A stretch of 64,000 nucleotides of DNA. Source: Fibrobacter sp. GTDB lineage: Bacteria; Fibrobacterota; Fibrobacteria; Fibrobacterales; Fibrobacteraceae. The position numbers were made by a program, and so were the translations under genes. The stretch lies in assembly GCA_017626945.1 (NCBI GenBank), contig JAGAHT010000024.1:1120-65119 (forward strand), written 5' to 3'. Position 1 is the first letter of the stretch, and each line of letters starts with the position of its first letter. Below are positions 1-44,600 of the stretch, piece by piece. The notes below the pieces were generated by a model. It was given only the letters and a program-made list of their open reading frames with translations. It had not been told where the DNA came from and made no database searches.

Positions 1-1782
1 CAGGCTGTAAAATTCTTGACGCAAATCTACAAGCTCGTTTAGATTTTTTTGCACAGTAATGCCAGCGGAAACGCGCTCGCCTTTACCAGTTTTAGTATTT
101 TCAAGGCTCATTTCCACATAATGACCGTCAAATGTTGAAATGAGGCTATTTCCCTGCATGAATTTGTAATCAAAGTTCGGCAGGGGTTCCGGCTCATCAC
201 TGTTTACAACGATGGAAAGCCAGAAACGAAGTCGAGCAATATCAATCGCACCTTTTTCAATATCTACGCCATAAATGTTATTCTGAATAATATCTTTTTT
301 CAGACGGGCAATTTCATTTGCATCCTTATTTTTTCGAGGATAGAGAGCGAGCCTTATTCTCAACAACAGATTCAGCATTCCCATCGGGAACGCACCGCTA
401 CCTATCGCGGGGTCACAAATCTTTACATTCTCAATAAGTTTTAGTAGCAGACGTTTATTTTCTTCGATTTCTTCCGGGATATTTTCATCATCAAGATTCT
501 CAACGAATTTGCGAATAATTTTTTCCTTTATCCCAGATTTTTCGCTCAAATAAGCAATGACGGATTCACTGCACATATAGAGCACTTCTTCTTTAGGAGT
601 ATAAAAGGCGCCTTTTCCCTTGTTGTCTTCAAGAAGGCTCTCGAAAATAACGCTCAACATTTCCGGGTCAATGCCCATTTCTTCATCATTAGGGTCGTTC
701 TCATCAACAGTGAAGTTATATTCACTAAAGAAGTCAAAAAGCTTTTCAAAGTAATCTTCCGGGAATTTTGCGTCTCTCTTATCAAGTTCATCCTGTTCAA
801 ACAAGCCGCCGTTTAAATACGGAATAGAGGATAGGCCAGGAATAGCCGAAACACTCCAGCCCATTTCCTTGAATTTCTCGGAACGCATTCTCTGCGGAGT
901 GTTAAGCACACCAAAGAACAGCGGTTCTAGCACATTATCCAAGAAATCTTTTTTCTCACTTGATTCATCAAATAGTTTTGTCAAATACTTTTTATCGCTG
1001 TTCAGCCAGCCCTTACGTTCCAAGAAATACAAGAATACTAAGCGGCCCATCATTTTCTTCACGTAGTCACGAAGAGGCTTGTATTTTGTCTTGTAAATTT
1101 CCTCAACATCATTTTCATCGTCCCCAGTATCATATTTGGCAATGACCGTCTTAAAGCTCTTTTGCATTGCCGGGGTGACAATCATGTATTCAACGAAGGA
1201 GTTGTAAAGTTCCTCGTACTTGTCGAAAAATTCCTTAGAAAGAGCTTCGACAGAAAAGGCATTTATCAAATCATCGTCCGTCTTTTTGGAATTGGCGAGT
1301 ATTTCAAATCGTTCTGTTGCCGTTCTAGGATTGTGTTCATTGCCAAAAACGTAGGTATATCTTTTGGCGGAAGTCGTATTCTTTAGCGTTCCCTCCTTGT
1401 GAAGATAAGAGAAACGCCATTCCTTATTTTCACAATCCTTGTAATGGAAGACAATAAACGCATGAGAATACTGGGACAGTGCAGACCTTATAAGGCGCTG
1501 GATGCCAACCCTGGAACGGGAAATATCCGAGGTGTTCTTCAAAGTCACATCGAACAATTCAATATCTTCCGATTTGATATTGTTTATTGTTCCGATATTC
1601 AAAATGGAGGAAACATTAGCTATATCCGCAGCGGCTTTTGATTCGCTTGTTACCAGCTGTTCCGGCACATCCTTCTTTTCAAAGCATTCCTCGCCGAAGA
1701 TAGGATAAATGATGTTTTCTATGAAATTATCAATTCCAGAGAAATCACCCGTAAGAACTGTTTTAACCTGTTTCTTGTCCAT
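1..1782 (-). CDS. Type IIG / Eco57I-like restriction-modification enzyme (N6-adenine methyltransferase), 3'-partial, runs off the window
   Basis: Translated by hand (not in the ORF track): starts MDKKQVKTVLTGDF at 1782 and contains GAFYTPKEEV, motif I ICDPAIGSGAFPMGML, IYGVDIEKGAIDIARLRFWLS and PLPNFDYKFMQGNSL. Confidence 0.85.
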   Translation of the reverse strand, partial: MDKKQVKTVLTGDFSGIDNFIENIIYPIFGEECFEKKDVPEQLVTSESKAAADIANVSSILNIGTINNIKSEDIELFDVTLKNTSDISRSRVGIQRLIRSALSQYSHAFIVFHYKDCENKEWRFSYLHKEGTLKNTTSAKRYTYVFGNEHNPRTATERFEILANSKKTDDDLINAFSVEALSKEFFDKYEELYNSFVEYMIVTPAMQKSFKTVIAKYDTGDDENDVEEIYKTKYKPLRDYVKKMMGRLVFLYFLERKGWLNSDKKYLTKLFDESSEKKDFLDNVLEPLFFGVLNTPQRMRSEKFKEMGWSVSAIPGLSSIPYLNGGLFEQDELDKRDAKFPEDYFEKLFDFFSEYNFTVDENDPNDEEMGIDPEMLSVIFESLLEDNKGKGAFYTPKEEVLYMCSESVIAYLSEKSGIKEKIIRKFVENLDDENIPEEIEENKRLLLKLIENVKICDPAIGSGAFPMGMLNLLLRIRLALYPRKNKDANEIARLKKDIIQNNIYGVDIEKGAIDIARLRFWLSIVVNSDEPEPLPNFDYKFMQGNSLISTFDGHYVEMSLENTKTGKGERVSAGITVQKNLNELVDLRQEFYSL

Positions 1783-1804
1783 TGTTTTGTCCCTTGTATA
1801 AATC

Positions 1805-4800
1805 CTAGTTCATTTCGTAAAGCGCGATATACGCTTCGCCTTTTTTCAACTTGGCCTTTTCCGTAACGGTCTTGAACGCATTCTTGACCCAATCGTTTAC
1901 GTCGCTATTCAAGCCGAACATTGACGCGCCAGAACGGTCGTAATCTTCTTCCCATTTCAGCACAGCCTTAATCACATCGACATTCTTATCCTTTACTGCT
2001 CTTTCAGCAGCCTTCAAGGAAGCGAACGCGGCATCATCTGTAAGCATTAAGCGGATTTTTGCAATAGCAGCCAGGGCATTTTTCTGCTTATCGTTAATGT
2101 CTTTCGCATGAATGGAGTGAGTGACGTGTTTGCTGAACTCAATGATTGCAGAATCCTTCATTGTTTCGTAAAGTTCACGACTTTCAGGCTTAACGAAAAT
2201 ATTCAACGAATTTGTTTTCAAGTAGTCAGCAAATTCAAGTGGAGAAACCGTTTTGATATTGCCCTTATCATCAGCAAAAAGATTCAACATTCCCTGCTGG
2301 AGCGAACGTACCGCGAAGCAGCCGTTTGTACAATCCTGTCGCAACTGTCCGCCCATGTTCTCCATCGGCATTTCCATGAGTTCCTTGAAGCGTTCTGCAT
2401 TATTTTCCTGGAACTGTTTCAATTCCGAAATAAACTTGCTATAAGGCGATTCCTCGCCATCAAAGTTTTGGGTGAAATTTGCCTCGGAGATTTCTTCGTC
2501 CTCGCTGAAAATTTTGCTATCCTCACCAAACATCGTGTGGAATGTTTGCAGCTTAGCAAAAGCGATTTCAATAAGCATCAACTGTTCATTTCCCGTTGCG
2601 CTGGGATAGAAATTGTAAACATAGACAAAAGGCTCTTTAGAACCAATTCGGTTCACACGGCCAATGCGCTGCATCAATTTTGTCGCATTCCAGGGAGTGT
2701 CATAATTGAGGATGGTGTTTGAACGATGCAGGTTTACACCTTCTGCAAGAACTTCTGTCGTGATGATAACATCGTAATCATCTTTCATTTCACCTTTGTA
2801 GTTCGCGTCAAAGTTCTGCTTAATCACTTCCTTCATCGCATCGCGATTGGCGGCAGAAATGGCGAGAGGACGTAGCCTTCTGTTTTTGGGAAGATGAATC
2901 GCCTTTACGACTTTTTCCAGTTCTTTCATCGTATCAACGGCTTCCGTAAAGATAACCAGTTTTTGGGAAGTATTCTTTCGCCTGTCAAAAAGTTCCTCTC
3001 TTAGGCATTCCTTGAACTGTTCCAGTTTAGGGTCAACGGAAACACGATTCCATCGTTTGCACAAGCCGTCCAAAATCCGTTCATCTTCTCTCAAATGCTC
3101 CAGATATTCTTCGCGGAAATCGTCAGCCCTATACTCACGATTATTCCCTTGCTTCTTTTCTATCCTGCTTCGGATGTTTTCGCAGACAGAATCAAATGGC
3201 AACGGTTCATCATTCTTGTCGAAAAACTCGCGATTTACATCAATATCCGGGCAGATGAAGACAACATTTCGTTCAAGCATCTTTATCATGTTCTTTGTAG
3301 CATCCCAAAGAGCACAAAGAGTATTCTTGAAAGCAGGCAAGCTGCTTTCCAATCGTTTCACAAGCAACTTCTTCATCATTGAAGCCAGCTGCTCGGTCGT
3401 CATATCAACGGTCAAGTTGTTCTTTTCATAGAACTTCTTATTTTCTTCGTCCTTAAAATACCTAATCGCCTGATAGCGATGATAGCCCAAATGCTTGGTA
3501 TTGTCCAACAGGTTCAACTCATTGGGCGGCAAAATTGCCTGAATGGTATTATAGAACAAATCGGCCAATTCCAAATCCATGATGTAGTCGATTCTCTTTG
3601 GCCCCCTCAATTCAGGGAAAGTCAAATCTTCATTGTATTTGGAATAGTATTTCTTAATATCCGTTCGCGTTCTTCTAACCAGGAGCTGGTCAAGAACTTT
3701 TTCTCGAATCTGCTTGGAAAGGTATTTAAGGCGAATCTTTGCTTCGCGCCTGTCCTCCAGCTTCCTACACTGCTGGAACTCTTTTTCCATATTACTAAAG
3801 AAAGAATCTAGTTTACCGCCCTCAATCGTCGGCAACTTCGTATTATTCGGATTTCTTTCGAAGAACTTGATTTGATTGTAAATATCCTGCGGAGAGTTGT
3901 TCTGCGGAGTAGCAGAAAGCAGCCCAACAAAAGGAGCAATATGCTGTTGAGCAATTCTCGAAATCAGATTATCCAAATCTTGATATTTTTTCGTCTTGTG
4001 GTTTCTGAAATTATGGCTTTCATCTATGATGATAAGGCCATATTCCTTATCCTTCAAAGCCTCCGTGAACGCACCATCATCGTTATCTTCTTCATCTTCG
4101 CCCGTCAAAAGGTTTCCGATGCTACCTGTGGTGATAAAGTCAATATAGGGAGTAATTGCCGTTGGGGCGTCTTCATCGAAGTCCCTAATCGTGTCCAACC
4201 AGCCGGACTTAATTGCGGGAGGCGTTACGATAAGCACGTTCGCAGAACGGCCCTCATAGGAAGCGTGTTCCTCGATAAACTTTTTAATAATCAATGTTCC
4301 GACAACAGTCTTTCCAAGTCCCACAACGTCCGAAAGAATAAACCCGTTGTACTGCTTCATAATAAAGAAGCACTGCTTTACTGCGTCTAGCTGGTAAGTA
4401 AAACTTTTGTAATCCTTGGGAAGATAGGATTTCAACGTCGTATCTTGACTGCTGTCGGCAATGTCGCCAAACTGATTTTGAAGATAACGGATATACAGCT
4501 CATACGGCGTATAAGCCCATGTCGGTTCTGATTCTTCTTCAAGTTCCTTTTGAGCTTTTTCACCAATCGGGGCTTTTTTTAGAATCTGTTCCAGGAATAC
4601 CTTATTCCAACATTCGGACAGTTCCCATTTTTCATAAAACCAAAAACGATGGCCCTTTGCAGGGGCTCCTTCTTTGGGTTCAGCGAGGACAAAGGAAGAA
4701 TCATTGTCGAAGTGGTTGAGTTCGGCATTTCCTTGCAAGCCCTTGGCCGTAAAATTGCTACTGCCGATAAGGCCATAGGAATGGTCCTTATACTTGAATA

Positions 4801-5233
4801 TGTAGCACTTAGAATGAAGAAACTGTGTTTCGTCTTTTTCGTTTTTACGAAAGATGCGAATTTGGATTTTAGAATTTTCGCTGTTATCGCAATACTTCAA
4901 CAGGAGTTTTACGGCATTCTGAAATTCGTCTTTCAGCTCCAGGCTTTCAATGTCCGTTCTAATAAAATCATCTGGGAAGGTAGCGTCCTTATATTTAGGT
5001 TCCTTGAGCTGGTTCGCATAAACATAAGGGTCCTTCCCGATGAGCAAATTGAACCGCGTGTCTGGCTGTTGTAAGAACGCATCCAATTCAGCCTGAATTA
5101 AGGCAAGTCCAGGAATGTCCCAATAACCCGTGGCAATATTCACCTCTTGCAGACCAGGCTCCATCAAACACTGTTTTAGCGTCTCAACCATGGAAAGCGA
5201 AGAAGATGAATTATCGACGAGCGTTTTGAACAT
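1805..5233 (-). CDS. N-terminal PLD (HKD) nuclease fused to SF2/SNF2-like helicase, partner of the adjacent methyltransferase
   Basis: FLHSKCYIF..GSSNFT (HKD variant), LSDVVGLGKT (Walker A), IIIDESHNF (DExH), LLSATP, TEVLAEGVNL, QRIGRVNRIG; 22 bp upstream of the MTase on the same strand. Confidence 0.85.
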   Translation of the reverse strand: MFKTLVDNSSSSLSMVETLKQCLMEPGLQEVNIATGYWDIPGLALIQAELDAFLQQPDTRFNLLIGKDPYVYANQLKEPKYKDATFPDDFIRTDIESLELKDEFQNAVKLLLKYCDNSENSKIQIRIFRKNEKDETQFLHSKCYIFKYKDHSYGLIGSSNFTAKGLQGNAELNHFDNDSSFVLAEPKEGAPAKGHRFWFYEKWELSECWNKVFLEQILKKAPIGEKAQKELEEESEPTWAYTPYELYIRYLQNQFGDIADSSQDTTLKSYLPKDYKSFTYQLDAVKQCFFIMKQYNGFILSDVVGLGKTVVGTLIIKKFIEEHASYEGRSANVLIVTPPAIKSGWLDTIRDFDEDAPTAITPYIDFITTGSIGNLLTGEDEEDNDDGAFTEALKDKEYGLIIIDESHNFRNHKTKKYQDLDNLISRIAQQHIAPFVGLLSATPQNNSPQDIYNQIKFFERNPNNTKLPTIEGGKLDSFFSNMEKEFQQCRKLEDRREAKIRLKYLSKQIREKVLDQLLVRRTRTDIKKYYSKYNEDLTFPELRGPKRIDYIMDLELADLFYNTIQAILPPNELNLLDNTKHLGYHRYQAIRYFKDEENKKFYEKNNLTVDMTTEQLASMMKKLLVKRLESSLPAFKNTLCALWDATKNMIKMLERNVVFICPDIDVNREFFDKNDEPLPFDSVCENIRSRIEKKQGNNREYRADDFREEYLEHLREDERILDGLCKRWNRVSVDPKLEQFKECLREELFDRRKNTSQKLVIFTEAVDTMKELEKVVKAIHLPKNRRLRPLAISAANRDAMKEVIKQNFDANYKGEMKDDYDVIITTEVLAEGVNLHRSNTILNYDTPWNATKLMQRIGRVNRIGSKEPFVYVYNFYPSATGNEQLMLIEIAFAKLQTFHTMFGEDSKIFSEDEEISEANFTQNFDGEESPYSKFISELKQFQENNAERFKELMEMPMENMGGQLRQDCTNGCFAVRSLQQGMLNLFADDKGNIKTVSPLEFADYLKTNSLNIFVKPESRELYETMKDSAIIEFSKHVTHSIHAKDINDKQKNALAAIAKIRLMLTDDAAFASLKAAERAVKDKNVDVIKAVLKWEEDYDRSGASMFGLNSDVNDWVKNAFKTVTEKAKLKKGEAYIALYEMN

Positions 5234-5385
5234 TATGACCCATTCCTTTTTTGAACACCATAATAGTATTTTCCATTACACTACAATCAAAGTTTTTTTG
5301 AATTTTCTTTGATTTTTTTCAATTTATATTCAATTTCAAGTCATAAAGTGTCAAAGAGAACTTTTTTTGTAAAAAAACGCTTGTT

Positions 5386-5406
5386 AAACCTAACTTGATT
5401 AGGTTT
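5386..5406. promoter_or_regulatory. Palindromic operator-like site, copy 1 (AAACCTAA-CTTGA-TTAGGTTT)
   Basis: Perfect 8-bp inverted repeat with 5-nt spacer; same core at 25311 and 38563. Confidence 0.6.
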
Positions 5407-5473
5407 ATGTCATTCATTAAGCAACAACTGTTTGCACGCTAGGAGCCAACTTTTTACTAGCTTACGTCCAATT

Positions 5474-5671
5474 ATGAACGATTACAAAATTTGGCTTATG
5501 GTCTGGGTGCTCCGCATCCTTCTTTTTACCAAGCTCTGCGTCGTGTTTGCGGCGTTCTTTTTCGTCAGGAACTACAAGCACATAAAGGAAAATGGATTCA
5601 ACGACATTTTCTTCTGCTGGCAGACCTGGTGGAGAGCCAGCGTCACCCTGTATAGGGAGTTGATGCGCTAA
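5474..5671 (+). CDS. Small hypothetical membrane protein (65 aa)
   Basis: ATG at 5474 (MNDYKIW...), one hydrophobic stretch, downstream of the operator. Confidence 0.45.
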   Translation: MNDYKIWLMVWVLRILLFTKLCVVFAAFFFVRNYKHIKENGFNDIFFCWQTWWRASVTLYRELMR

Positions 5672-6910
5672 TCATTTCCGATAGAACAGACTGTCAAAGA
5701 ACGCTGCTCTATTTTCCCAGACAAAGCGTTCCTTCTTGTCCGTCGGCTTCTTCTCGTTCCACCAAACAAAATCCCTCATTTGACAAATAACATCATCCCA
5801 GTACACATCGAAAATTTTGTCCTTATTGCAATTTACGATGTTCGGGATGCTCAAGAATTTCGACAAGTTCTCACTGTTTTCGTTATCAACGCAAATAAAG
5901 GTGTCAGGACGTTTCATGGCAAGTAATCGCGTTGCCGTTGCGAGCCTGATTCCAGGGAGCTTCGTTATCTTGGCAACATATTCATCATAATGCTCTTGCT
6001 CGACATTTCCCTCCCTGGGGATGCATTCAAGCGCTGCTGCCAGTTTTTCGCTTTCCTTGCCGACATACTTCTTGAACATCCCGGCGCCTTGCATACTACC
6101 AAAAAGACCCCATTCCAGAGTCTTTCCGTTTTCGCCCTTCACATCAACATCAAGGCCTGCAATCAACTTGCGTTCCTCAAGGGAGTAATCAGAAAACTGT
6201 CTATATTCTCCATTTGCCTTTTTTTGCTGAAACAGCTCTTTTATTTTTTTCAAAAGCAGAGTTCTTCTTTCGAAGCGGCCCTTTTCTTTTTTGTCTTCAT
6301 TCTGGACATTTGCAAAGAAATCTTCCCACGGCAAGTCCCGCAAGAATGTAGGACGAGAAACATTCTTTGTCGAACCGCTATCCTTACGACCGTATTCACT
6401 CGAAAGGCTGCGAATACGTTTCTGTTGATGCGCCCATGTAGCCTTATAGCTTTCAAATTTTTTTCTGTCAAATGACTCTGCGCCTTTTCTGTACGTCACA
6501 AGGATATTTTTGGCTTTAATCAGTACGGTACCATCGCTGTCGTCGGCATCTGTCATTAAGACGCCAACTTCGCTATTCTTGGAGAAAGCTGCATTCGTAA
6601 AGTTCGCACTTCCGACAATCATTTTCCATTCCTTGCCCTTCTCAAACAGGTACATCTTCGGGTGGAATGTTCCCGAAGTCTGCATTATGAATTTTACCCG
6701 TTCATCGTCTATGAACCGTTCAATAAATCGCGGGTCGGTCTGATAGAAGTGAATACCTACGACGCCCTGCTTAATCTTTGCATCCAGCAGTTTTTCAGAC
6801 AATCCCACAATCGGGCTTGCCCAGGCTGATGCGAAAGACAGACGTTCGCACCACTTTAGGTTCTTTTGAAACAGAGACATCAATTCTTTCGGTTCTGATA
6901 TGAGCTTCAT
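5672..6910 (-). CDS. PLD-family (single HKD, NgoFVII/BfiI-like) putative endonuclease
   Basis: TFHPKMYLF...MIVGSANFT motif in the N-terminal domain; AT-rich relative to the structural genes. Confidence 0.75.
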   Translation of the reverse strand: MKLISEPKELMSLFQKNLKWCERLSFASAWASPIVGLSEKLLDAKIKQGVVGIHFYQTDPRFIERFIDDERVKFIMQTSGTFHPKMYLFEKGKEWKMIVGSANFTNAAFSKNSEVGVLMTDADDSDGTVLIKAKNILVTYRKGAESFDRKKFESYKATWAHQQKRIRSLSSEYGRKDSGSTKNVSRPTFLRDLPWEDFFANVQNEDKKEKGRFERRTLLLKKIKELFQQKKANGEYRQFSDYSLEERKLIAGLDVDVKGENGKTLEWGLFGSMQGAGMFKKYVGKESEKLAAALECIPREGNVEQEHYDEYVAKITKLPGIRLATATRLLAMKRPDTFICVDNENSENLSKFLSIPNIVNCNKDKIFDVYWDDVICQMRDFVWWNEKKPTDKKERFVWENRAAFFDSLFYRK

Positions 6911-18487: not shown

Positions 18488-20020
18488 ATGTTCGATAAAT
18501 TCCAAAAGCCTTGTTGCATTGAATTTTATAATGCTTATGACTCCATTTTAAAAAACATTGGATTTCATATGCAATTTTTTTCTTTCCTTAAAACAAAATT
18601 CGATAAAATTCAATCAACAAAGCACGCCCATAAGGCCGTTATTGAAATATTTATTGAATATATCAGGTCCGAGGTGTTTGACACACAAATCAATTTAGCA
18701 GACGAAACAAAGAAAAGAAGTATTCTTTCAAAAAAAATTTTTGACTTTTGTTATCGCTATTTTACTAAGGGTTCTGCAACTCCTTCCGACCCGCGTGAAT
18801 TAAACAAATCGTTATTTAAATCAGAAATCAAATGCCTAAAACTATTTGACAATGTGCAACTTTGTTTACATGAAGAAGATTTTTCCTCCGATGACAAAAA
18901 AATGCTTCATTATTTAATCGAAGAATTTATTTTCATTCGAGCTTTTTCATCATTTATATCCAAATACAAAAATACGGAATCCATAGATTTTTTCAAACGT
19001 TTTTTCTTCGTTTATCCTTTCGATAGAAAAGACATTCCCTCTGAACGCAATAAAGAATGGATTGACAACCACGTTCAAAAATTTGAAACCATTAAAAATT
19101 ATATAACTTCTCCTGCAAATGAATTAAAAAATGTTCGCGAATGGTTTAAAGAACAACTGGAAAAAATAGACTTTGCTTCGCTTAGCGAGGAAAATAAATC
19201 TTTCTTCGTTAAGGAAATGTTTGTCACCTTTGGCAATATTTCTGACGAGAAAACCGGAGATGCTAAAGGTTTCCGCATTCCATTAAATCATTTATTCTAT
19301 CTAGGTCGATATTATAATGTACATCAACTTCCTTTGCGTTATGTAAAAAAAGAAAGGACCATATTAGAAAGTATCGCGCACGAAACATGGCGGCGTGTTT
19401 GCAAATTCAAAATAACGCCAAAAGATGAAATTGAAGAAGCAAAAAGAAAAAACAGTTCAGGAAAAATGTCTGAACCGAGCGAAAAAGAACTCTATGACAA
19501 AAAAGCTCCTAAAGTTGACATAGACCGCTTAATGAAACAGTTTCCTCAAGCTGTTCCATTACAGCAGGGAGACGATTACGAAACTGTAGTAACCAAATTT
19601 ATTTCTAGCATAGACGTTTCAAAAATCCCTGATATAAAATCAGCGGAAGAAATTCCTGCATTTGTTTCAGATTCACTAAGTTCTTTAGGAATAAATGAAG
19701 GAATGATTAATCTTATTTCCAGCTTAGGCGACATAGAAATCCCGAAAATAAATAATTCGAGTGAGATTCCAGAACATATCGTTGAAGTATTAGGTTCATT
19801 GAGTGGAAAAGGTGTAATTAGTGCTGATTACAGAGGCAATATCAAAAATCAAAAAACCGACTTTTTAAGAATAGTTGGAGATGCAAGTTTGTCGCTTTCC
19901 CCAAAACTATCTGTCCAAAAACTAGTCGGCTTACTAACTCACTTTGACATGTACAAGCCTCAGCAATCTCTACAAGAAATGGAGCAAATAATGAAGAAAA
20001 CTATTCAAATGTTGGTTTAG
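18488..20020 (+). CDS. AT-rich hypothetical moron protein (510 aa)
   Basis: Long open frame with strongly AT-rich composition inside the tail operon; no motif recognised. Confidence 0.75.
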   Translation: MFDKFQKPCCIEFYNAYDSILKNIGFHMQFFSFLKTKFDKIQSTKHAHKAVIEIFIEYIRSEVFDTQINLADETKKRSILSKKIFDFCYRYFTKGSATPSDPRELNKSLFKSEIKCLKLFDNVQLCLHEEDFSSDDKKMLHYLIEEFIFIRAFSSFISKYKNTESIDFFKRFFFVYPFDRKDIPSERNKEWIDNHVQKFETIKNYITSPANELKNVREWFKEQLEKIDFASLSEENKSFFVKEMFVTFGNISDEKTGDAKGFRIPLNHLFYLGRYYNVHQLPLRYVKKERTILESIAHETWRRVCKFKITPKDEIEEAKRKNSSGKMSEPSEKELYDKKAPKVDIDRLMKQFPQAVPLQQGDDYETVVTKFISSIDVSKIPDIKSAEEIPAFVSDSLSSLGINEGMINLISSLGDIEIPKINNSSEIPEHIVEVLGSLSGKGVISADYRGNIKNQKTDFLRIVGDASLSLSPKLSVQKLVGLLTHFDMYKPQQSLQEMEQIMKKTIQMLV

Positions 20021-25294: not shown

Positions 25295-25310
25295 AGGATT
25301 CTCCCGTTTT

Positions 25311-25327
25311 ACCTAATCAAGATAGGT
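25311..25327. promoter_or_regulatory. Operator-like site, copy 2 (ACCTAA-TCAAG-ATAGGT)
   Basis: Differs at one position from the reverse complement of the copy-1 core; 17 bp upstream of the 54-aa ORF start. Confidence 0.55.
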
Positions 25328-25447
25328 TTATTTGCCGAATTTGTAAAGGTATAGTCAAAGAAAAATTGAATTGTATGCAAATTTTATTGCATTTTATTCA
25401 AAAATGTATTAAATTCTATTCAATTCTTTTGCATAGGATTCAATTTT

Positions 25448-25918
25448 ATGGAAATTCGGGAAGTCGAAATCGGGCTTTTGAAGCCATACGAGAATAACCC
25501 GCGCAACAACGAGGCGGCAGTTGACAAGGTGGCCGCGAGCATTTCCGAGTTCGGTTTCAAGGTTCCCATCATCATCGACAGGGAAAACGTAATCGTCGCG
25601 GGACACACGCGCTATCTCGCCGCGCAGAAGCTGGAGCTGCAAAAAGTCCCCTGCATTGTCGCGGACGACCTGACCCCGAATCAGATTAAGGCGTTCCGCC
25701 TCGCTGACAACAAAGTCTCGGAATTTAGCGGCTGGGATTTCCAGAAGCTCAACGAAGAACTTTCATTCCTCGGAGAAGCGGCCTTTGACCTGGAACAGTT
25801 CGGATTCCTGCCGAACGAGAACGTGGATTTCGACAGTTTCCTGACGGATGAAGAAAATCCGCAAAAGAAACCCAAGACCATCACCTGCCCTCACTGCGGA
25901 AAGACCTTCGAGAAATAA
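25448..25918 (+). CDS. ParB N-terminal domain protein with C-terminal CxxC
   Basis: LKPYENNPRNN..AVDKVAASISEFGFKVPIIID..IVAGHTRY; ends TCPHCGKTF. Confidence 0.85.
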   Translation: MEIREVEIGLLKPYENNPRNNEAAVDKVAASISEFGFKVPIIIDRENVIVAGHTRYLAAQKLELQKVPCIVADDLTPNQIKAFRLADNKVSEFSGWDFQKLNEELSFLGEAAFDLEQFGFLPNENVDFDSFLTDEENPQKKPKTITCPHCGKTFEK

Positions 25919-26658
25919 TGCTTCTACACATGGCGACAGATGGACTCGTAGGAGATTTCTACACCAAGTTCCCGAAGAAGGAACTCAATATCCTTACGTC
26001 CTTTGAATATAAAAGCTCGTTGATGGGAAACGATGTTCGCGAGTTCAACCACTTTATCGCGGACAGCGGCGCATTCACGGCGATGGCAAGCGGCAAGAAG
26101 ATTGACGACAGCTATATCGACAGCTACATCGAATGGATAAAGGGCGCACACATCGACCATTTCATCGAAATGGACATTGACGAGATTGTCGGCATAGATA
26201 AGGTCAAGCAAATCCGAAACCGCATAGAACGTGCAACGGGAAAGCAAAGCATCCCCGTTTGGCATCTAGGCCGCAAGAAGGAAGGATGGCTTGACATGGT
26301 GAAGAACTACCCCTATGTCGCGCTCTCGCTTAGCGGATTTACAGCATCGAGCAAATGGCTCAAGGCGAACGACTGGAAACCGCTTCACTACTTCCTCGAC
26401 ACGGCAGCAGAAAACGGCTCCAAGGTTCACGCACTCGGATGCACGAACTGGGGGCTTCTGCGCAAGTTCCATTTCTACAGCAGCGACTCAAGCACATGGA
26501 GCCTCGGCGAAAGATACGGGACGTGTTTCGTGTTCCAGGATGGCGTAATGAAGGTCGTCTCGCTCCCCAAGAAATTCAAGAAGAACAAGAAAACTCTTGG
26601 CTTCCATAACAAACAACAATGGTTCAAGGCAATGCAATATGCAAAAATCAAGATGTGA
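25918..26658 (+). CDS. dpdA: DpdA-like (TGT-fold) 7-deazaguanine DNA insertion enzyme
   Basis: IADSGAFT, EMDID, IPVWH, VHALGCT, YSSDSSTW motifs; directly upstream of queC/E/D-folE. Confidence 0.7.
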   Translation: MLLHMATDGLVGDFYTKFPKKELNILTSFEYKSSLMGNDVREFNHFIADSGAFTAMASGKKIDDSYIDSYIEWIKGAHIDHFIEMDIDEIVGIDKVKQIRNRIERATGKQSIPVWHLGRKKEGWLDMVKNYPYVALSLSGFTASSKWLKANDWKPLHYFLDTAAENGSKVHALGCTNWGLLRKFHFYSSDSSTWSLGERYGTCFVFQDGVMKVVSLPKKFKKNKKTLGFHNKQQWFKAMQYAKIKM

Positions 26659-27301
26659 CGCAATCTTGCTGCTTTCGGGCGGCATCGACAGCACGACAGT
26701 TCTGGAACAGCTGACGAAGCAGGGCAAGAAGGTTTTCTGCCTTATCTTCGACTACAAGCAGAGTCTGCGCAAGGAAATCGCGGTGGCGGCGTCCAACGCG
26801 AAGCGGCTGAAACAGCCCTACAAAATTGTTTCCATTGACCTCGGATTTACGGGAAGCAAGTGTTCCCTCATTTCCAAGTCCAGGATAAGCGAGAATCGCA
26901 GCTTCGAGCAGATTGATTCCGCGACTCCCACAAGCTATGTGGAATTCAGAAACGGCATCCTGCTTTCCTACGCGGTCATGTTCGCGGAGGTCAACGGCAT
27001 AAACGACATTTACGGCGGTTTTAACGGGCTTGCAAGCGGACAATACCCCGACGACACATATTCATTCGTCAAGGCGTTCGAGAAGGCTGCAAACGCCGGT
27101 ACAGCGCCCGGTTTCAAGGTCAAGATTCATGCGCCCTTCTCAAGGATTTGCAAGAGCGAAATCGTCAAGCTGGGACGCAAAATCGGCGTCGATTACGAAA
27201 AGAACACCTGGAGCTGCTACAGGAACGGGAAAAATCACTGCGGCAAGTGTGACAGCTGCTTGCAGCGCAAAAGGGCATTGGCCATAGGGGAAATCATCTA
27301 A
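26639..27301 (+). CDS. queC: 7-cyano-7-deazaguanine synthase
   Basis: LLSGGIDSTT, TSYVEFRNGILLS, GQYPD, TWSCY..HCGKCDSCLQR. Confidence 0.93.
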   Translation: MQKSRCDAILLLSGGIDSTTVLEQLTKQGKKVFCLIFDYKQSLRKEIAVAASNAKRLKQPYKIVSIDLGFTGSKCSLISKSRISENRSFEQIDSATPTSYVEFRNGILLSYAVMFAEVNGINDIYGGFNGLASGQYPDDTYSFVKAFEKAANAGTAPGFKVKIHAPFSRICKSEIVKLGRKIGVDYEKNTWSCYRNGKNHCGKCDSCLQRKRALAIGEII

Positions 27302-27870
27302 TGGAAAAAATCTACAGGATAAACAAGATATTCTTTAGCATCCAGGGCGAAGGAAAGCGCGTTGGAACGCCACAGGTTTTCGTGCGTTTCAGCGGATGCA
27401 ACATGAAGTGTCCCTTCTGCGACACCGAGCACGAACCCTTCGACGAAATGACCGCCGAACAGATTATCCAGACCTGTCTTTCCATCGCGGGAAATTGCAG
27501 GAGCGTTTCTTTCTGCGGTGGTGAACCCACCTTGCAGCTGGACGACGAACTCATAAAGGCTTTTGATGGCTGGTACAAGTCCATCGAGACAAACGGAACG
27601 CACAAGGTTCCGCAGGGCATCGACTACATCGTCTGTAGTCCCAAGACTTCGCGCATCGAGCCGGACAACATTGACGAACTGCGTTTCGTCATAAAAGCTG
27701 GCGACCCGCTGCCGACCCCTTGCAAGACTGCGAAACGCATGTGCCTTAGCCCATGCTTTGACGGGGACAACCTCGTCAAGGAAAACCTCTATCACTGCAT
27801 AAAGCTGGTGCAGGAAAACCCCAGCTGGTTTCTCTCGCTTCAATGGCACAAGTTCATCGGTATCGAGTAG
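27301..27870 (+). CDS. queE: 7-carboxy-7-deazaguanine synthase (radical SAM)
   Basis: IFFSIQGEG..FVRFSGCNMKCPFCDT, GGEPTLQ, IETNGT, LSLQWHK. Confidence 0.93.
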   Translation: MEKIYRINKIFFSIQGEGKRVGTPQVFVRFSGCNMKCPFCDTEHEPFDEMTAEQIIQTCLSIAGNCRSVSFCGGEPTLQLDDELIKAFDGWYKSIETNGTHKVPQGIDYIVCSPKTSRIEPDNIDELRFVIKAGDPLPTPCKTAKRMCLSPCFDGDNLVKENLYHCIKLVQENPSWFLSLQWHKFIGIE

Positions 27871-27924
27871 CCTGTTTCGTTTCAAGGGCGGGATTCTTCC
27901 TGCCCATTCCCATAGGAGAAAGCA

Positions 27925-28266
27925 ATGTATCGAGTATGCAAGAGACTGGAAATTTCGGGAGCGCACCGTCTGGAACTCCCTTATCCGAGCAAGTGCAGCA
28001 ACCTTCACGGCCATAACTGGCTTGTGACCATTTTCTGCAAGAGCAAGACGCTCGACAAGGACGGAATGGTTATCGACTTCACCCACATCAAGAAGATAAT
28101 CATGGAAAAGCTCGACCACGCCTACATCAACGACGTGGTGGATTTCAACCCGACCGCCGAGAATATGGCGAAATGGATTTGCGACCAGGTGCCGTTCTGC
28201 CACAAGGTCGTTATTCAGGAAAGCGAGGGGAACCTGGCGCAATATGATAAAGACGAAGAAGATTGA
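27925..28266 (+). CDS. queD: 6-carboxytetrahydropterin synthase
   Basis: SGAHRL..KCSNLHGHNW, GMVIDF, LDHAYIND, PTAENMAKWI. Confidence 0.93.
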   Translation: MYRVCKRLEISGAHRLELPYPSKCSNLHGHNWLVTIFCKSKTLDKDGMVIDFTHIKKIIMEKLDHAYINDVVDFNPTAENMAKWICDQVPFCHKVVIQESEGNLAQYDKDEED

Positions 28267-28807
28267 ACAGCTTGTACGGCAGCTTCTTGAGGCGCTGAAT
28301 GACAACCCCGACCGCGAAGGTTTAAGGGACACGCCGCGCCGTGTCGCGAAATACTATGCCGAAATGTTCGAAGGCCAGAACTACACGAACGCACAGCTCG
28401 CGAAGAAGTTCGGCAAGTGTTTCAAGCAGGATGCAGACGGTCAAATCGTTTCCGTTGACGATATAACGATTTTCAGCCACTGCGAGCACCATCTTGCCCT
28501 CATGTACGACATGAAGGTTTCTATCCGCTATATCCCGCACGGGAAAGTTCTCGGACTCTCCAAGTTCGCAAGAATTTCCGAAATGGTGGGAAAGCGTTTG
28601 CAGCTCCAGGAGAAAATCGGCAGCGACATTGCCGAGGTAATCATGCTCGCGACTGGAAGTAAGGACGTAGAAGTCCGCATCGAGGCGAAACACGCCTGCG
28701 TCACGGCAAGGGGCGCAAAGAACTGCAACATGGTCACGCGTACGCTTTTCTCAAGCGGCGCCTTCAAAACTCACTTGACCTCGAATGTCACGGAGTCTAT
28801 AAGCTGA
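28244..28807 (+). CDS. folE: GTP cyclohydrolase I
   Basis: PDREGLRDTPRRVA, SHCEHH, GLSKFARI, RLQLQE, AKHACV..RG. Confidence 0.93.
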   Translation: MIKTKKIEQLVRQLLEALNDNPDREGLRDTPRRVAKYYAEMFEGQNYTNAQLAKKFGKCFKQDADGQIVSVDDITIFSHCEHHLALMYDMKVSIRYIPHGKVLGLSKFARISEMVGKRLQLQEKIGSDIAEVIMLATGSKDVEVRIEAKHACVTARGAKNCNMVTRTLFSSGAFKTHLTSNVTESIS

Positions 28808-38749: not shown

Positions 38750-38788
38750 GACGTTAATCGAAAACCCAGTATCTACGCGGGACAGGGC

Positions 38789-38841
38789 AGAGCAGCGGAC
38801 TCATAACCCGCGGGTTCCGGGTTCAAGTCCCGGAGGTCCCA
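38789..38841 (+). pseudogene. 3' fragment of an intron-less tRNA(CAT), candidate att duplication
   Basis: GAGC A GCGGA CTCATAA CCCGC GGGTT CCGGG TTCAAGT CCCGG AGGTCCC A; the D-arm 5' strand is missing; a terminator and host genes follow. Confidence 0.75.
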
Positions 38842-38845
38842 CGAG

Positions 38846-43997: not shown

Positions 43998-44070
43998 GCG
44001 GGAGTAGCTCAGTTGGTAGAGCGCGACCTTCCCAAGGTCGATGTCGAGGGTTCGAAACCCTTTTCCCGCT
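43998..44070 (+). tRNA. tRNA-Gly(CCC)
   Basis: GCGGGAG TA GCTC AGTTGGTA GAGC G CGACC TTCCCAA GGTCG ATGTC GAGGG TTCGAAA CCCTT TTCCCGC T cloverleaf. Confidence 0.95.
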
Positions 44071-44132
44071 CTAAAATGGAAAAGACACCTTCACGGTGTC
44101 TTTTTCATTTTACAAGTGAATAAGTTGGGTTG

Positions 44133-44594
44133 AGAACACTCGAAGAGGGTTCGACAAAATCCGGTTATGCACGAAGTGCGAAAAACGGATTTTGAGCTTG
44201 ACACGAGCGCAGCGAGTGCAAGCCCGAAGGGTTTAATCGCAACCTTGCGTCAGCAAGGAATATTGCGATTAAACAAACCCTTTTCCCGCTCTAAAGCAGA
44301 AAACCACCCTATCGGGTGGTTTTTGCTTTATTCGCGGCAAGGTTTCAAGAACCCTCGAAGAGGGTTCGACTAAATTCTTTTGTGGGCGCAAGCCCGTGAA
44401 AAGAATTTAGGACTTACTGCGCAAGCAGTAAGCCCGAAGGGCGGCAAGCCAGCCGCGTAAGCGGAGACTGGCGAAGCTGTCAAACCCTTTCCCAACTCAT
44501 TAACAAGTGTATCGAGCATTGAGCCCGTAGGGTTAACTCACAACCTTGCGTTAGCAAGGAATATTGTGAGTTAACAAACCCTTTTGACGTCTAA
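44133..44594 (+). repeat. Three tRNA-linked multi-hairpin cassettes framed by T-arm-like sequences
   Basis: GAGGGTTCGAC (44145, 44360), CCCG(A/T)AGGG hairpins, AAACCCTTT right ends (44275, 44482, 44576); 21-bp repeat of the tRNA 3' end at 44055 and 44275. Confidence 0.75.
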
Positions 44595-44600
44595 GGCAAC

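Follow-up and report, generated by a model that had tools for sequence, protein, structure and literature searches.

A cluster of six genes at positions 25448-28807 of a 64,000-nt stretch of Fibrobacter sp. DNA (assembly GCA_017626945.1, contig JAGAHT010000024.1, positions 1,120 to 65,119 of the forward strand; this whole stretch is referred to below as the window) encodes a small ParB-like protein, a 246-aa protein predicted to be a DNA-guanine transglycosylase (DpdA), and the enzymes QueC, QueE, QueD and FolE of the pathway to 7-cyano-7-deazaguanine (preQ0). We consider it likely that this cluster, which sits between the tail-fibre genes and the terminase of an integrated prophage, is a late-expressed anti-restriction DNA hypermodification module of that prophage. 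The packed, mostly overlapping plus-strand open reading frames (ORFs) that a first-pass annotation had read here from the letters of the sequence were all found at these coordinates, and they are listed with the surrounding features in Table 1.

Profile comparison indicated that the 246-aa protein belongs with the DNA-modifying transglycosylases. The protein matched phrog_887, a family labelled 'queuine tRNA-ribosyltransferase', with an E-value of 7.6e-40; it had no match in Pfam or NCBIfam, the tRNA-guanine transglycosylase (TGT) models included, and none among the DpdA models of PADLOC at E<=0.01. When a profile of 35 family members was aligned by hhalign with the experimentally validated DpdA of phage 9g, a probability of 99.4% and an E-value of 2.7e-21 were obtained over 191 columns, and by this comparison the ORF is a homologue of the 9g enzyme. 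Searching by tblastn returned 120 phage records, including those of Queuovirinae (9g, JenP1), Mycobacterium phage Bipper, Arthrobacter phage Sonali and Fusobacterium phage phiFN37. Furthermore, the AlphaFold2 (AF2) model was a TIM barrel of alternating beta-strands and alpha-helices (predicted local distance difference test, pLDDT, 94.5; predicted TM-score, pTM, 0.91), with the conserved residues located at the C-terminal strand ends. Foldseek searches with this model gave phage 'queuine tRNA-ribosyltransferases', which are DpdA models, as the best matches in BFVD (E 7.7e-18 to 1e-5, including DpdA2 of phage nt-1), and in the PDB the highest TM-scores were those of TGT and queuine tRNA-ribosyltransferase (QTRT) structures (TMq 0.57-0.61). 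Both the TGT fold and the DpdA-like identity that had been proposed for this ORF are thereby borne out. Some results of the same searches speak against the assignment: the family profile returned only noise from the PDB sequences, its hhalign alignment with Escherichia coli Tgt was weak and not significant (E 0.084), and in the Foldseek comparison with the PDB generic TIM barrels reached scores similar to those of TGT, so that the fold alone is not diagnostic. The bacterial DpdA structure (7UI4) was not among the top 50 PDB matches of the model.

The residues kept throughout the family were next compared with those of the bacterial enzyme. Invariant in the 35 family members and in the DpdAs of 9g, Bipper, Sonali and phiFN37 were D49-S-G-A-F53, D88, H116, H171-x-x-G174 and S188-x-D190, and the SxDSS motif was kept in the 246-aa protein. 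In bacterial DpdA, Asp95 with Phe99 serves as acid/base, Asp130 and His181 bind the base and Asp256 is the nucleophile, roles that mutagenesis has demonstrated or the structure has led to propose (PMC10164549). The invariant residues of the prophage family appear to match these catalytic residues in type and order, the mapping being made by motif order, and an Asp/Asp/His constellation is thus a likeness to the bacterial enzyme; even the weak alignment with E. coli Tgt paired HALG with YLMG, and D190 with the Asp of FDCV, as expected for these motifs. Only two cysteines occur in the 246 aa, neither of them conserved, and there is no C-terminal insertion; neither the zinc site CXCX2CX22H nor the Ins8 domain of bacterial DpdA and TGT was found in the protein. 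In length, the prophage enzyme falls in a shorter clade than the DpdAs of 9g (317 aa) and Bipper (357 aa), and it shares with those of 9g, Bipper and Sonali 23-31% identity in the multiple alignment, or 27.6-37.6% over the segments matched by tblastn. Its gene is linked to queC, queE, queD and folE directly downstream, and in relatives the linkage is with que genes or with YhhQ/Vut_1 transporters.

All four enzymes of the preQ0 pathway, FolE, QueD, QueE and QueC, are present with their signature motifs. QueC is a stand-alone protein without an amidotransferase domain, in whose translation the SGGIDS PP-loop and a C-terminal Cys cluster were recognized; its start was taken as the ATG at 26639, following the gene callers in identical contigs, a TTG at 26597 being the alternative. 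For QueE, the best of several QueE models was TIGR04508, aligned over positions 1-208 of 208 with 112.9 bits against a cutoff of 240, and its length was unchanged in relatives. The genes are closely joined: ParB/DpdA and QueC/QueE each meet at a TAATG with a 1-nt overlap of stop and start, DpdA and QueC overlap by 20 nt given the ATG start, QueD and FolE overlap by 23 nt, and the 54 nt between QueE and QueD are the sole gap in the cluster. Sigma-70 promoter and terminator scans gave only background levels, the sigma-70 consensus scoring no better than in shuffled sequences. No QueF, glutamine amidotransferase (GATase)-QueC, ArcS or DUF328/DpdC was recorded in the Pfam lists of the genes called in identical contigs that cover ~7051-36658, in agreement with the absence of queF and Gat-QueC noted at first reading.

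The same five-enzyme set, likewise with neither amidotransferase nor QueF, is known from the Escherichia phage CAjan (Seuratvirus) and the Mycobacterium phage Rosebush, where the minimal set FolE/QueD/QueE/QueC/DpdA yields 2'-deoxy-7-cyano-7-deazaguanosine (dPreQ0) at 32% and 28% of G, respectively; deletion of dpdA removes the modification and, with it, the resistance to restriction (PMC6884629). The DpdA superfamily is the same in all three, and the predicted product dPreQ0 and the predicted anti-restriction role would be shared. What sets the Fibrobacter cluster apart is its carrier, an integrated prophage and not a lytic coliphage or mycobacteriophage, its location at the tail/terminase junction, and a ParB-like gene translationally coupled to dpdA. 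Since the window carries just this minimal set, and nothing that would process preQ0 further accompanies it, dPreQ0 is the most likely product. In the proposed mechanism, FolE, QueD, QueE and QueC would convert GTP to the free base preQ0, and DpdA, activated or loaded on DNA by the coupled ParB, would swap guanines for preQ0 in replicated phage DNA just before packaging; virion DNA would then carry dPreQ0 at a sequence-dependent fraction of G and would resist many restriction enzymes. The dPreQ0-type modification suggested at first reading is therefore in line with the gene set, as in CAjan and Rosebush, and with the homology to 9g DpdA, and remains a prediction from sequence. That the cluster lies immediately before the terminase points to late expression, with replicated DNA modified shortly ahead of packaging, as for Mom in phage Mu. 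Like Mom, the module would represent a late, post-replicative base modification that blocks restriction and is carried by a temperate phage, although the late timing is here inferred; Mom differs in its chemistry, an adenine N6 modification, and belongs to an unrelated enzyme family.

Several points weigh against this interpretation of the module. QueE stayed under every NCBIfam cutoff. The substrate specificity of DpdA enzymes varies and is unreadable from sequence (PMC10516641), and the chemistry proposed for this phage is inferred from its genes, as are the identity of the modified base, the late expression and the dependence on ParB. In addition, the metatranscriptome contigs gave no clear picture of expression; two runs labelled as RNA, X25 and X26, had even depth and contigs of 27-45 kb, which is DNA-like, and they were excluded from the expression evidence.

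The ParB-like gene had been passed over as a bystander at first reading, and it is instead probably part of the system, considering its stop/start overlap with dpdA and its recurrence upstream of dpdA elsewhere. Its product contains a GxxR box, AGHTR, that is invariant in 24 homologues, and a short tail ending in CPHCG; a helix-turn-helix (HTH) was not found in it. The AF2 model (pLDDT 73) matched the N-domains of Noc, ParB-CDP and KorB as well as Srx, and in PADLOC the protein matched only the N-terminal domain of type II methyltransferases. To quantify the linkage, 50 distant genome loci with enough upstream sequence were considered, from Clostridia, Veillonella, Faecalibacterium, Synergistetes, Saccharibacteria and even an Archaeoglobus metagenome-assembled genome (MAG): ParB lay directly upstream of DpdA in 33 of them, and no preQ0 genes were nearby in 27 of these 33. 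The same adjacency, often with an overlap of 1-4 nt, was found in phiFN37, Sonali, Bipper and the related loci L003 and L005, and all three sampled loci with close ParB homologues (59-66% identical) were deazaguanine modules just before the terminase. Among 75 IMG/VR loci carrying a relative of ParB, DpdA followed downstream in 22; other partners were a C5 DNA methyltransferase, a Dam-like methyltransferase, a radical S-adenosylmethionine (SAM) enzyme and Mom (L131), and in some of these loci the ParB domain was fused to an N6_N4 methyltransferase or to DUF4417. Natural fusions of ParB with DpdA were also considered and were rejected, because the N-terminal extensions of longer family members turned out to be repeated 'M.IYLAG' segments or miscalled starts.

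These observations fit what is known of ParB-fold partners of DNA-modifying enzymes. The bacterial DpdA enzyme requires DpdB, an ATPase with a ParB fold (PMC10164549); in prophages, fusions of ParB-CTPase folds to methyltransferases and DUF4417 are frequent (PMC12704722); and some phage thymine dioxygenases need a ParB activator (5mYOX176/ParB176; PMC13229309); neither of the latter two papers mentions DpdA or deazaguanines, and a paper on mycobacteriophage CRB2 suggested, in passing, that a ParB-like ORF was a possible dpdB homologue (PMC6392294). The prophage pair resembles the thymine dioxygenase systems in that a small HTH-less phage ParB-fold protein adjoins a post-replicative base-modifying enzyme, and it resembles the prophage fusions in that the same ParB family accompanies methyltransferases, Mom and DUF4417 in the loci examined; in Fibrobacter, by difference, the partner is a transglycosylase, whose need for ParB would be deduced by analogy. 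With the bacterial Dpd system of Salmonella Montevideo (DpdA/DpdB/DpdC and DpdD-K; PMC10164549), the prophage shares a TIM-barrel transglycosylase, the predicted insertion of preQ0 into DNA and a ParB-fold partner, which in the bacterial system is an NTPase. Unlike it, the prophage proteins match no PADLOC DpdA or DpdB models and DpdA lacks the zinc site and Ins8; the 156-aa ParB has a GxxR box, whereas DpdB is a protein of ~40-47 kDa with a DGQQR motif and an SspE-like C-domain; and no DpdC (DUF328) or restriction components are among the genes neighbouring dpdA; the purpose here would be counter-defence and not self-marking as in bacteria. The order ParB, DpdA and preQ0 genes upstream of the terminase is shared with the Mycobacterium phages Bipper and CRB2 and the Arthrobacter phage Sonali, the last with a 4-nt overlap of ParB and DpdA; these phages differ in having Actinobacteria as hosts and longer DpdAs, and Bipper has no QueC.

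By analogy with DpdB and with the ParB proteins that activate phage thymine dioxygenases, ParB is probably an activator or a DNA-loading partner of DpdA. Arguing in the other direction, ParB had no match to the bacterial DpdB models of PADLOC at E<=0.01, 17 of the 50 distant loci, mostly Bacteroidales, had no detectable ParB, and the well-studied DpdAs of 9g and CAjan work without one, so that ParB may be dispensable for DpdA. Because a third of the relatives lack ParB and the 9g-type enzymes work alone, the prospect that DpdA truly depends on ParB is put only slightly below even. The wider proposal would be that compact (~250 aa) prophage DpdAs are two-component enzymes needing ParB as the phage counterpart of DpdB, and that the ParB family is a general activator or loader for post-replicative phage base modification (deazaguanine exchange, C5/N6 methylation, Mom and thymine oxidation); we put it forward tentatively, as somewhat more apt to fail than to hold.

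Three other explanations of the cluster were weighed. One is that it is an auxiliary metabolic module that provides more queuosine or preQ0 for modifying the tRNA of host or phage, and leaves DNA alone: FolE, QueD, QueE and QueC form the precursor pathway of tRNA queuosine, the PHROG label of the 246-aa protein names a tRNA enzyme, and the prophage has a tRNA gene of its own. The transglycosylase, however, is homologous to the DNA-modifying 9g DpdA, has no Pfam TGT match and reaches only E 0.084 with E. coli Tgt, it is without the zinc subdomain and the tRNA-binding insertions of TGT, no QueF, QueA or QueG is present, the coupled ParB-fold protein has relatives that accompany DNA methyltransferases and Mom, and many relatives of the pair consist of ParB and DpdA with no biosynthesis genes; a role in tRNA is thus very unlikely. 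Less improbable, if still unlikely, is a DNA modification that ends in a base other than preQ0, such as preQ1 (via host QueF), 7-amido-7-deazaguanine (ADG), 7-carboxy-7-deazaguanine (CDG) or a further derivative. DpdA substrates differ, the DpdA2 of phage VH7D inserting preQ1 better than preQ0 and also CDG (PMC10516641); related modules carry extra genes (phosphoribosyltransferase (PRTase)-like in L003 and L098, a SAM methyltransferase in L050, DUF328/DpdC-like in L099), and several small ORFs of the prophage have no annotation. Against such a base stand the stand-alone QueC, which makes preQ0 the last base of the phage pathway, the absence of QueF, DpdC, ArcS, Gat-QueC, DpdL, DpdM or a DpdN-like domain among the prophage genes, and the formation of dPreQ0 by the same gene set in CAjan and Rosebush.

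It could also be supposed that the cluster is a silent relic of a defective prophage and that ParB is an unrelated partition or nuclease gene that merely adjoins it. The part of the prophage inside the window showed no gene for an integrase, a repressor or replication, its head and packaging modules are unusually arranged, the metatranscriptome signal over the cluster is near background, and small ParB-like genes are very common in phages. However, dN/dS (the ratio of nonsynonymous to synonymous substitution rates) was 0.06-0.14 for all six genes (0.07 for QueE) in comparison with a Fibrobacter prophage relative from horse faeces, with dS near saturation, and this strong purifying selection indicates that the cluster is in use. 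All six ORFs are intact and of conserved length across many samples, and a full set of structural genes is present. The window holds only the right end of the prophage; as the left end lies outside it, the missing lysogeny genes give no evidence of decay. Moreover, in run X5 the phage contig exceeded the host flank in depth ~5-9x, at most a hint of activity, and the overlap and adjacency of ParB and DpdA recur across phyla. Decay of the cluster is accordingly a remote prospect, and the preferred interpretation stays that of a working DNA hypermodification module.

Table 1. Features of the window, with positions counted from its first letter.
Feature	Coordinates	Strand	Evidence or remark
MmeI/Eco57I-like methyltransferase-endonuclease	runs off window start	-	cargo block 1-6910
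HKD-SNF2 (SNF2-PLD) helicase, 1142 aa	1805-5233	-	best PADLOC match 'HKD+Snf2', also DrmD-like
PLD nuclease, 412 aa	5672-6910	-	defence-like cargo block
Protease	7051		myovirus-like prophage
Major head protein	8952		myovirus-like prophage
Sheath	11566		myovirus-like prophage
Baseplate and fibre genes	up to 24827		precede dpd operon
AT-rich intergenic region	25295-25447	+	upstream of operon; candidate late promoter; sequence read directly
Small ParB-CTPase-fold protein, 156 aa	25448-25918	+	Pfam ParB_N 35.6 bits vs 26.3; phrog_620 1.9e-54
Compact DpdA, DNA-guanine transglycosylase of 9g/DpdA1-like superfamily (predicted)	25918-26658	+	phrog_887, hhalign, AF2
QueC, 7-cyano-7-deazaguanine (preQ0) synthase	26639-27301	+	TIGR00364 159.5 vs cutoff 150.3; Pfam QueC 5e-53
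QueE, radical SAM	27301-27870	+	Radical_SAM and Fer4_12 over Pfam cutoffs; CX3CX2C motif
QueD, 6-carboxytetrahydropterin synthase	27925-28266	+	TIGR03367 93.1 vs 89.25; Pfam PTPS 8.8e-28; CxxxHGH motif
FolE, GTP cyclohydrolase I	28244-28807	+	NF006826 192.6 vs 162; Pfam 3.6e-54; CEHH motif
Neck1-like gene		opposite	between dpd operon and TerS-like gene
Packaging module	29567-35323	+	TerS-like, then TerL 29988-31397, portal 31412-32653, MuF-fusion 32657-35323; PHROG matches
GIY-YIG protein	35327-36088	-	low-GC segment
Right prophage end (attR), truncated tRNA(CAU)-like remnant	38779-38844	+	Rfam tRNA 25.9 bits, under 29-bit threshold
Host genes (saccharopine-dehydrogenase-like, speA, nudC, tRNA-Gly)	from 38892

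The window comes from a Fibrobacter chromosome, and rumen and faecal MAGs of F. succinogenes and Fibrobacter sp. encode DpdA with 98-100% identity. The right prophage end was located by contigs of related phages from five runs, which match the window to 38836-38844 and then diverge, and by a contig of run X1 that enters the host flank without mismatch. A second copy of the tRNA 3' 25-mer was found neither in the window nor in any fetched locus, and a direct-repeat search for the left attachment (att) site gave nothing convincing. As there is no second att copy in the window, the left end lies beyond position 1, and the integrase probably does as well. The description of the phage as temperate at first reading thus stands as far as integration is concerned, given the junction with the host flank at ~38844; IMG/VR also lists the exact DpdA protein in predicted proviruses. 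In the host flank, two further copies of the tRNA-Gly(CCC) 3' end, each with the hairpin that lies downstream of it, occur within 600 bp (43998-44600, plus strand; repeat families D2, D3 and D8), and these repeats look like scars of earlier integrations at this tRNA. The prophage tRNA gene (36057-36368, minus strand) is split in the anticodon loop by a 237-nt insertion and was missed by default ARAGORN and by the Rfam gathering scan; the intron mode of ARAGORN reads it as tRNA(CUA), an amber suppressor, and splicing as in its intron-less paralogues, for which runs X1 and X12 contain DNA joints, would yield tRNA(CAU). In its core sequence the insertion appears to resemble the IC3 group I introns of bacterial tRNA genes. 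In metatranscriptome X33, a contig over this split tRNA had a depth of 242, against ~1 for the neighbouring genes.

The module order of the prophage is unusual, with protease, capsid and tail genes before terminase, portal and MuF, and minus-strand early genes after MuF (7051-35323). The related locus L003, whose DpdA is 84% identical, has tail, dpd cluster, terminase, portal, MuF and then minus-strand genes, so the order is not an assembly artefact. The possibility of two separate prophage fragments was rejected on the same order in L003, together with the clean mapping of the right end to one att site. A dpd module directly upstream of the terminase genes was also found in Bipper, L005, L033, L050 and L098-L100. 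When 16 kb of prophage sequence were compared with the phages of GenBank by megablast, no match was obtained. Within the baseplate module, a 510-aa ORF (18488-20020, plus strand, GC 0.38) had no Pfam, PHROG or PADLOC match, and its place is taken by other cargo in otherwise identical prophages, such as an HTH gene, an M78 peptidase and a DUF4417 protein in L008. The 888-aa MuF head-morphogenesis protein (32657-35323, plus strand) has a long C-terminal extension that weakly matches the PHROG 'Bxa ADP-ribosyl transferase', and it may be a polyvalent injected effector.

The cluster had also been described as lying in the same locus as a restriction-modification (R-M) gene and an orphan nuclease. 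Both genes are real and belong to the same prophage, but they lie ~18 kb from the dpd locus at a variable cargo spot and are not functionally linked neighbours of the cluster. In the cargo block, the HKD-SNF2 protein matched DpdE models only weakly, and no relative of this SNF2-PLD helicase was found in IMG/VR. Other strains carry, left of the protease, a type III-like R-M system with a UvrD/PD-(D/E)XK protein, or insertion sequence (IS) elements with RecT; in L072, a resolvase and a TaqI_C-domain gene occur further left of the cargo block, which suggests phase-variable specificity. It is possible that a broad anti-restriction modification permits prophages of this lineage, whose restriction cargo differs, to enter hosts bearing any of it. 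The GIY-YIG segment is likewise replaced by 712 other bases in run X5; because its longest ORF begins by reading through the 3' exon of the tRNA, the true start lies further in (225 or 210 aa in other contigs).

The distribution of the compact DpdA family was then surveyed. In the public collection the exact protein was indexed in 970 blocks, the contigs reaching 0.2-1 Mb, and the family comprised 8143 cluster representatives at E<=1e-3 and 5375 at E<=1e-10, being common in prophages of gut anaerobes such as Faecalibacterium, Prevotella, Veillonella and Muribaculaceae. Variant modules were seen among the relatives: L099 (609-2860) has ParB, a DpdA-like protein, a DUF328/DpdC-like protein and a Vut_1 (YhhQ-family) transporter, with 2'-deoxy-ADG (dADG) from salvaged preQ0 as its predicted product; L033 (5713-9559, Muribaculaceae) lacks ParB and combines a DpdA that is extended by ~96 aa at the N-terminus with the full pathway and a Vut_1 transporter; L003 (12040-12390) and L098 have a small phosphoribosyltransferase-like ORF inside the cluster; and L050 (5309-7519, Faecalibacterium prausnitzii) has ParB, DpdA and a SAM methyltransferase. 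The gene cluster itself is of a known kind. The literature searched contained neither a paper that links Fibrobacter, prophage and queuosine nor a description of Fibrobacter phages or of this prophage, and the key deazaguanine papers (including PMC10516641 and PMC6884629) did not discuss prophages or ParB in phages; what is new there is the host lineage, the size and gut-prophage prevalence of the compact DpdA clade, and the quantified ParB-DpdA linkage.

The recurrent coupled ParB-DpdA pair offers a concrete test case for the activation of DNA-modifying enzymes by ParB folds, and a requirement for ParB might explain phage DpdAs that are inactive when expressed alone. Fibrobacter has a key part in fibre degradation in the rumen, and, if the proposed modification is true, it would host a widespread DNA-hypermodifying prophage that many restriction systems fail to recognize. 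Virome methods that rely on restriction or on polymerases could then be biased, and since the compact DpdA family is large and common in the prophages of gut anaerobes, deazaguanine DNA may be frequent in gut viromes.

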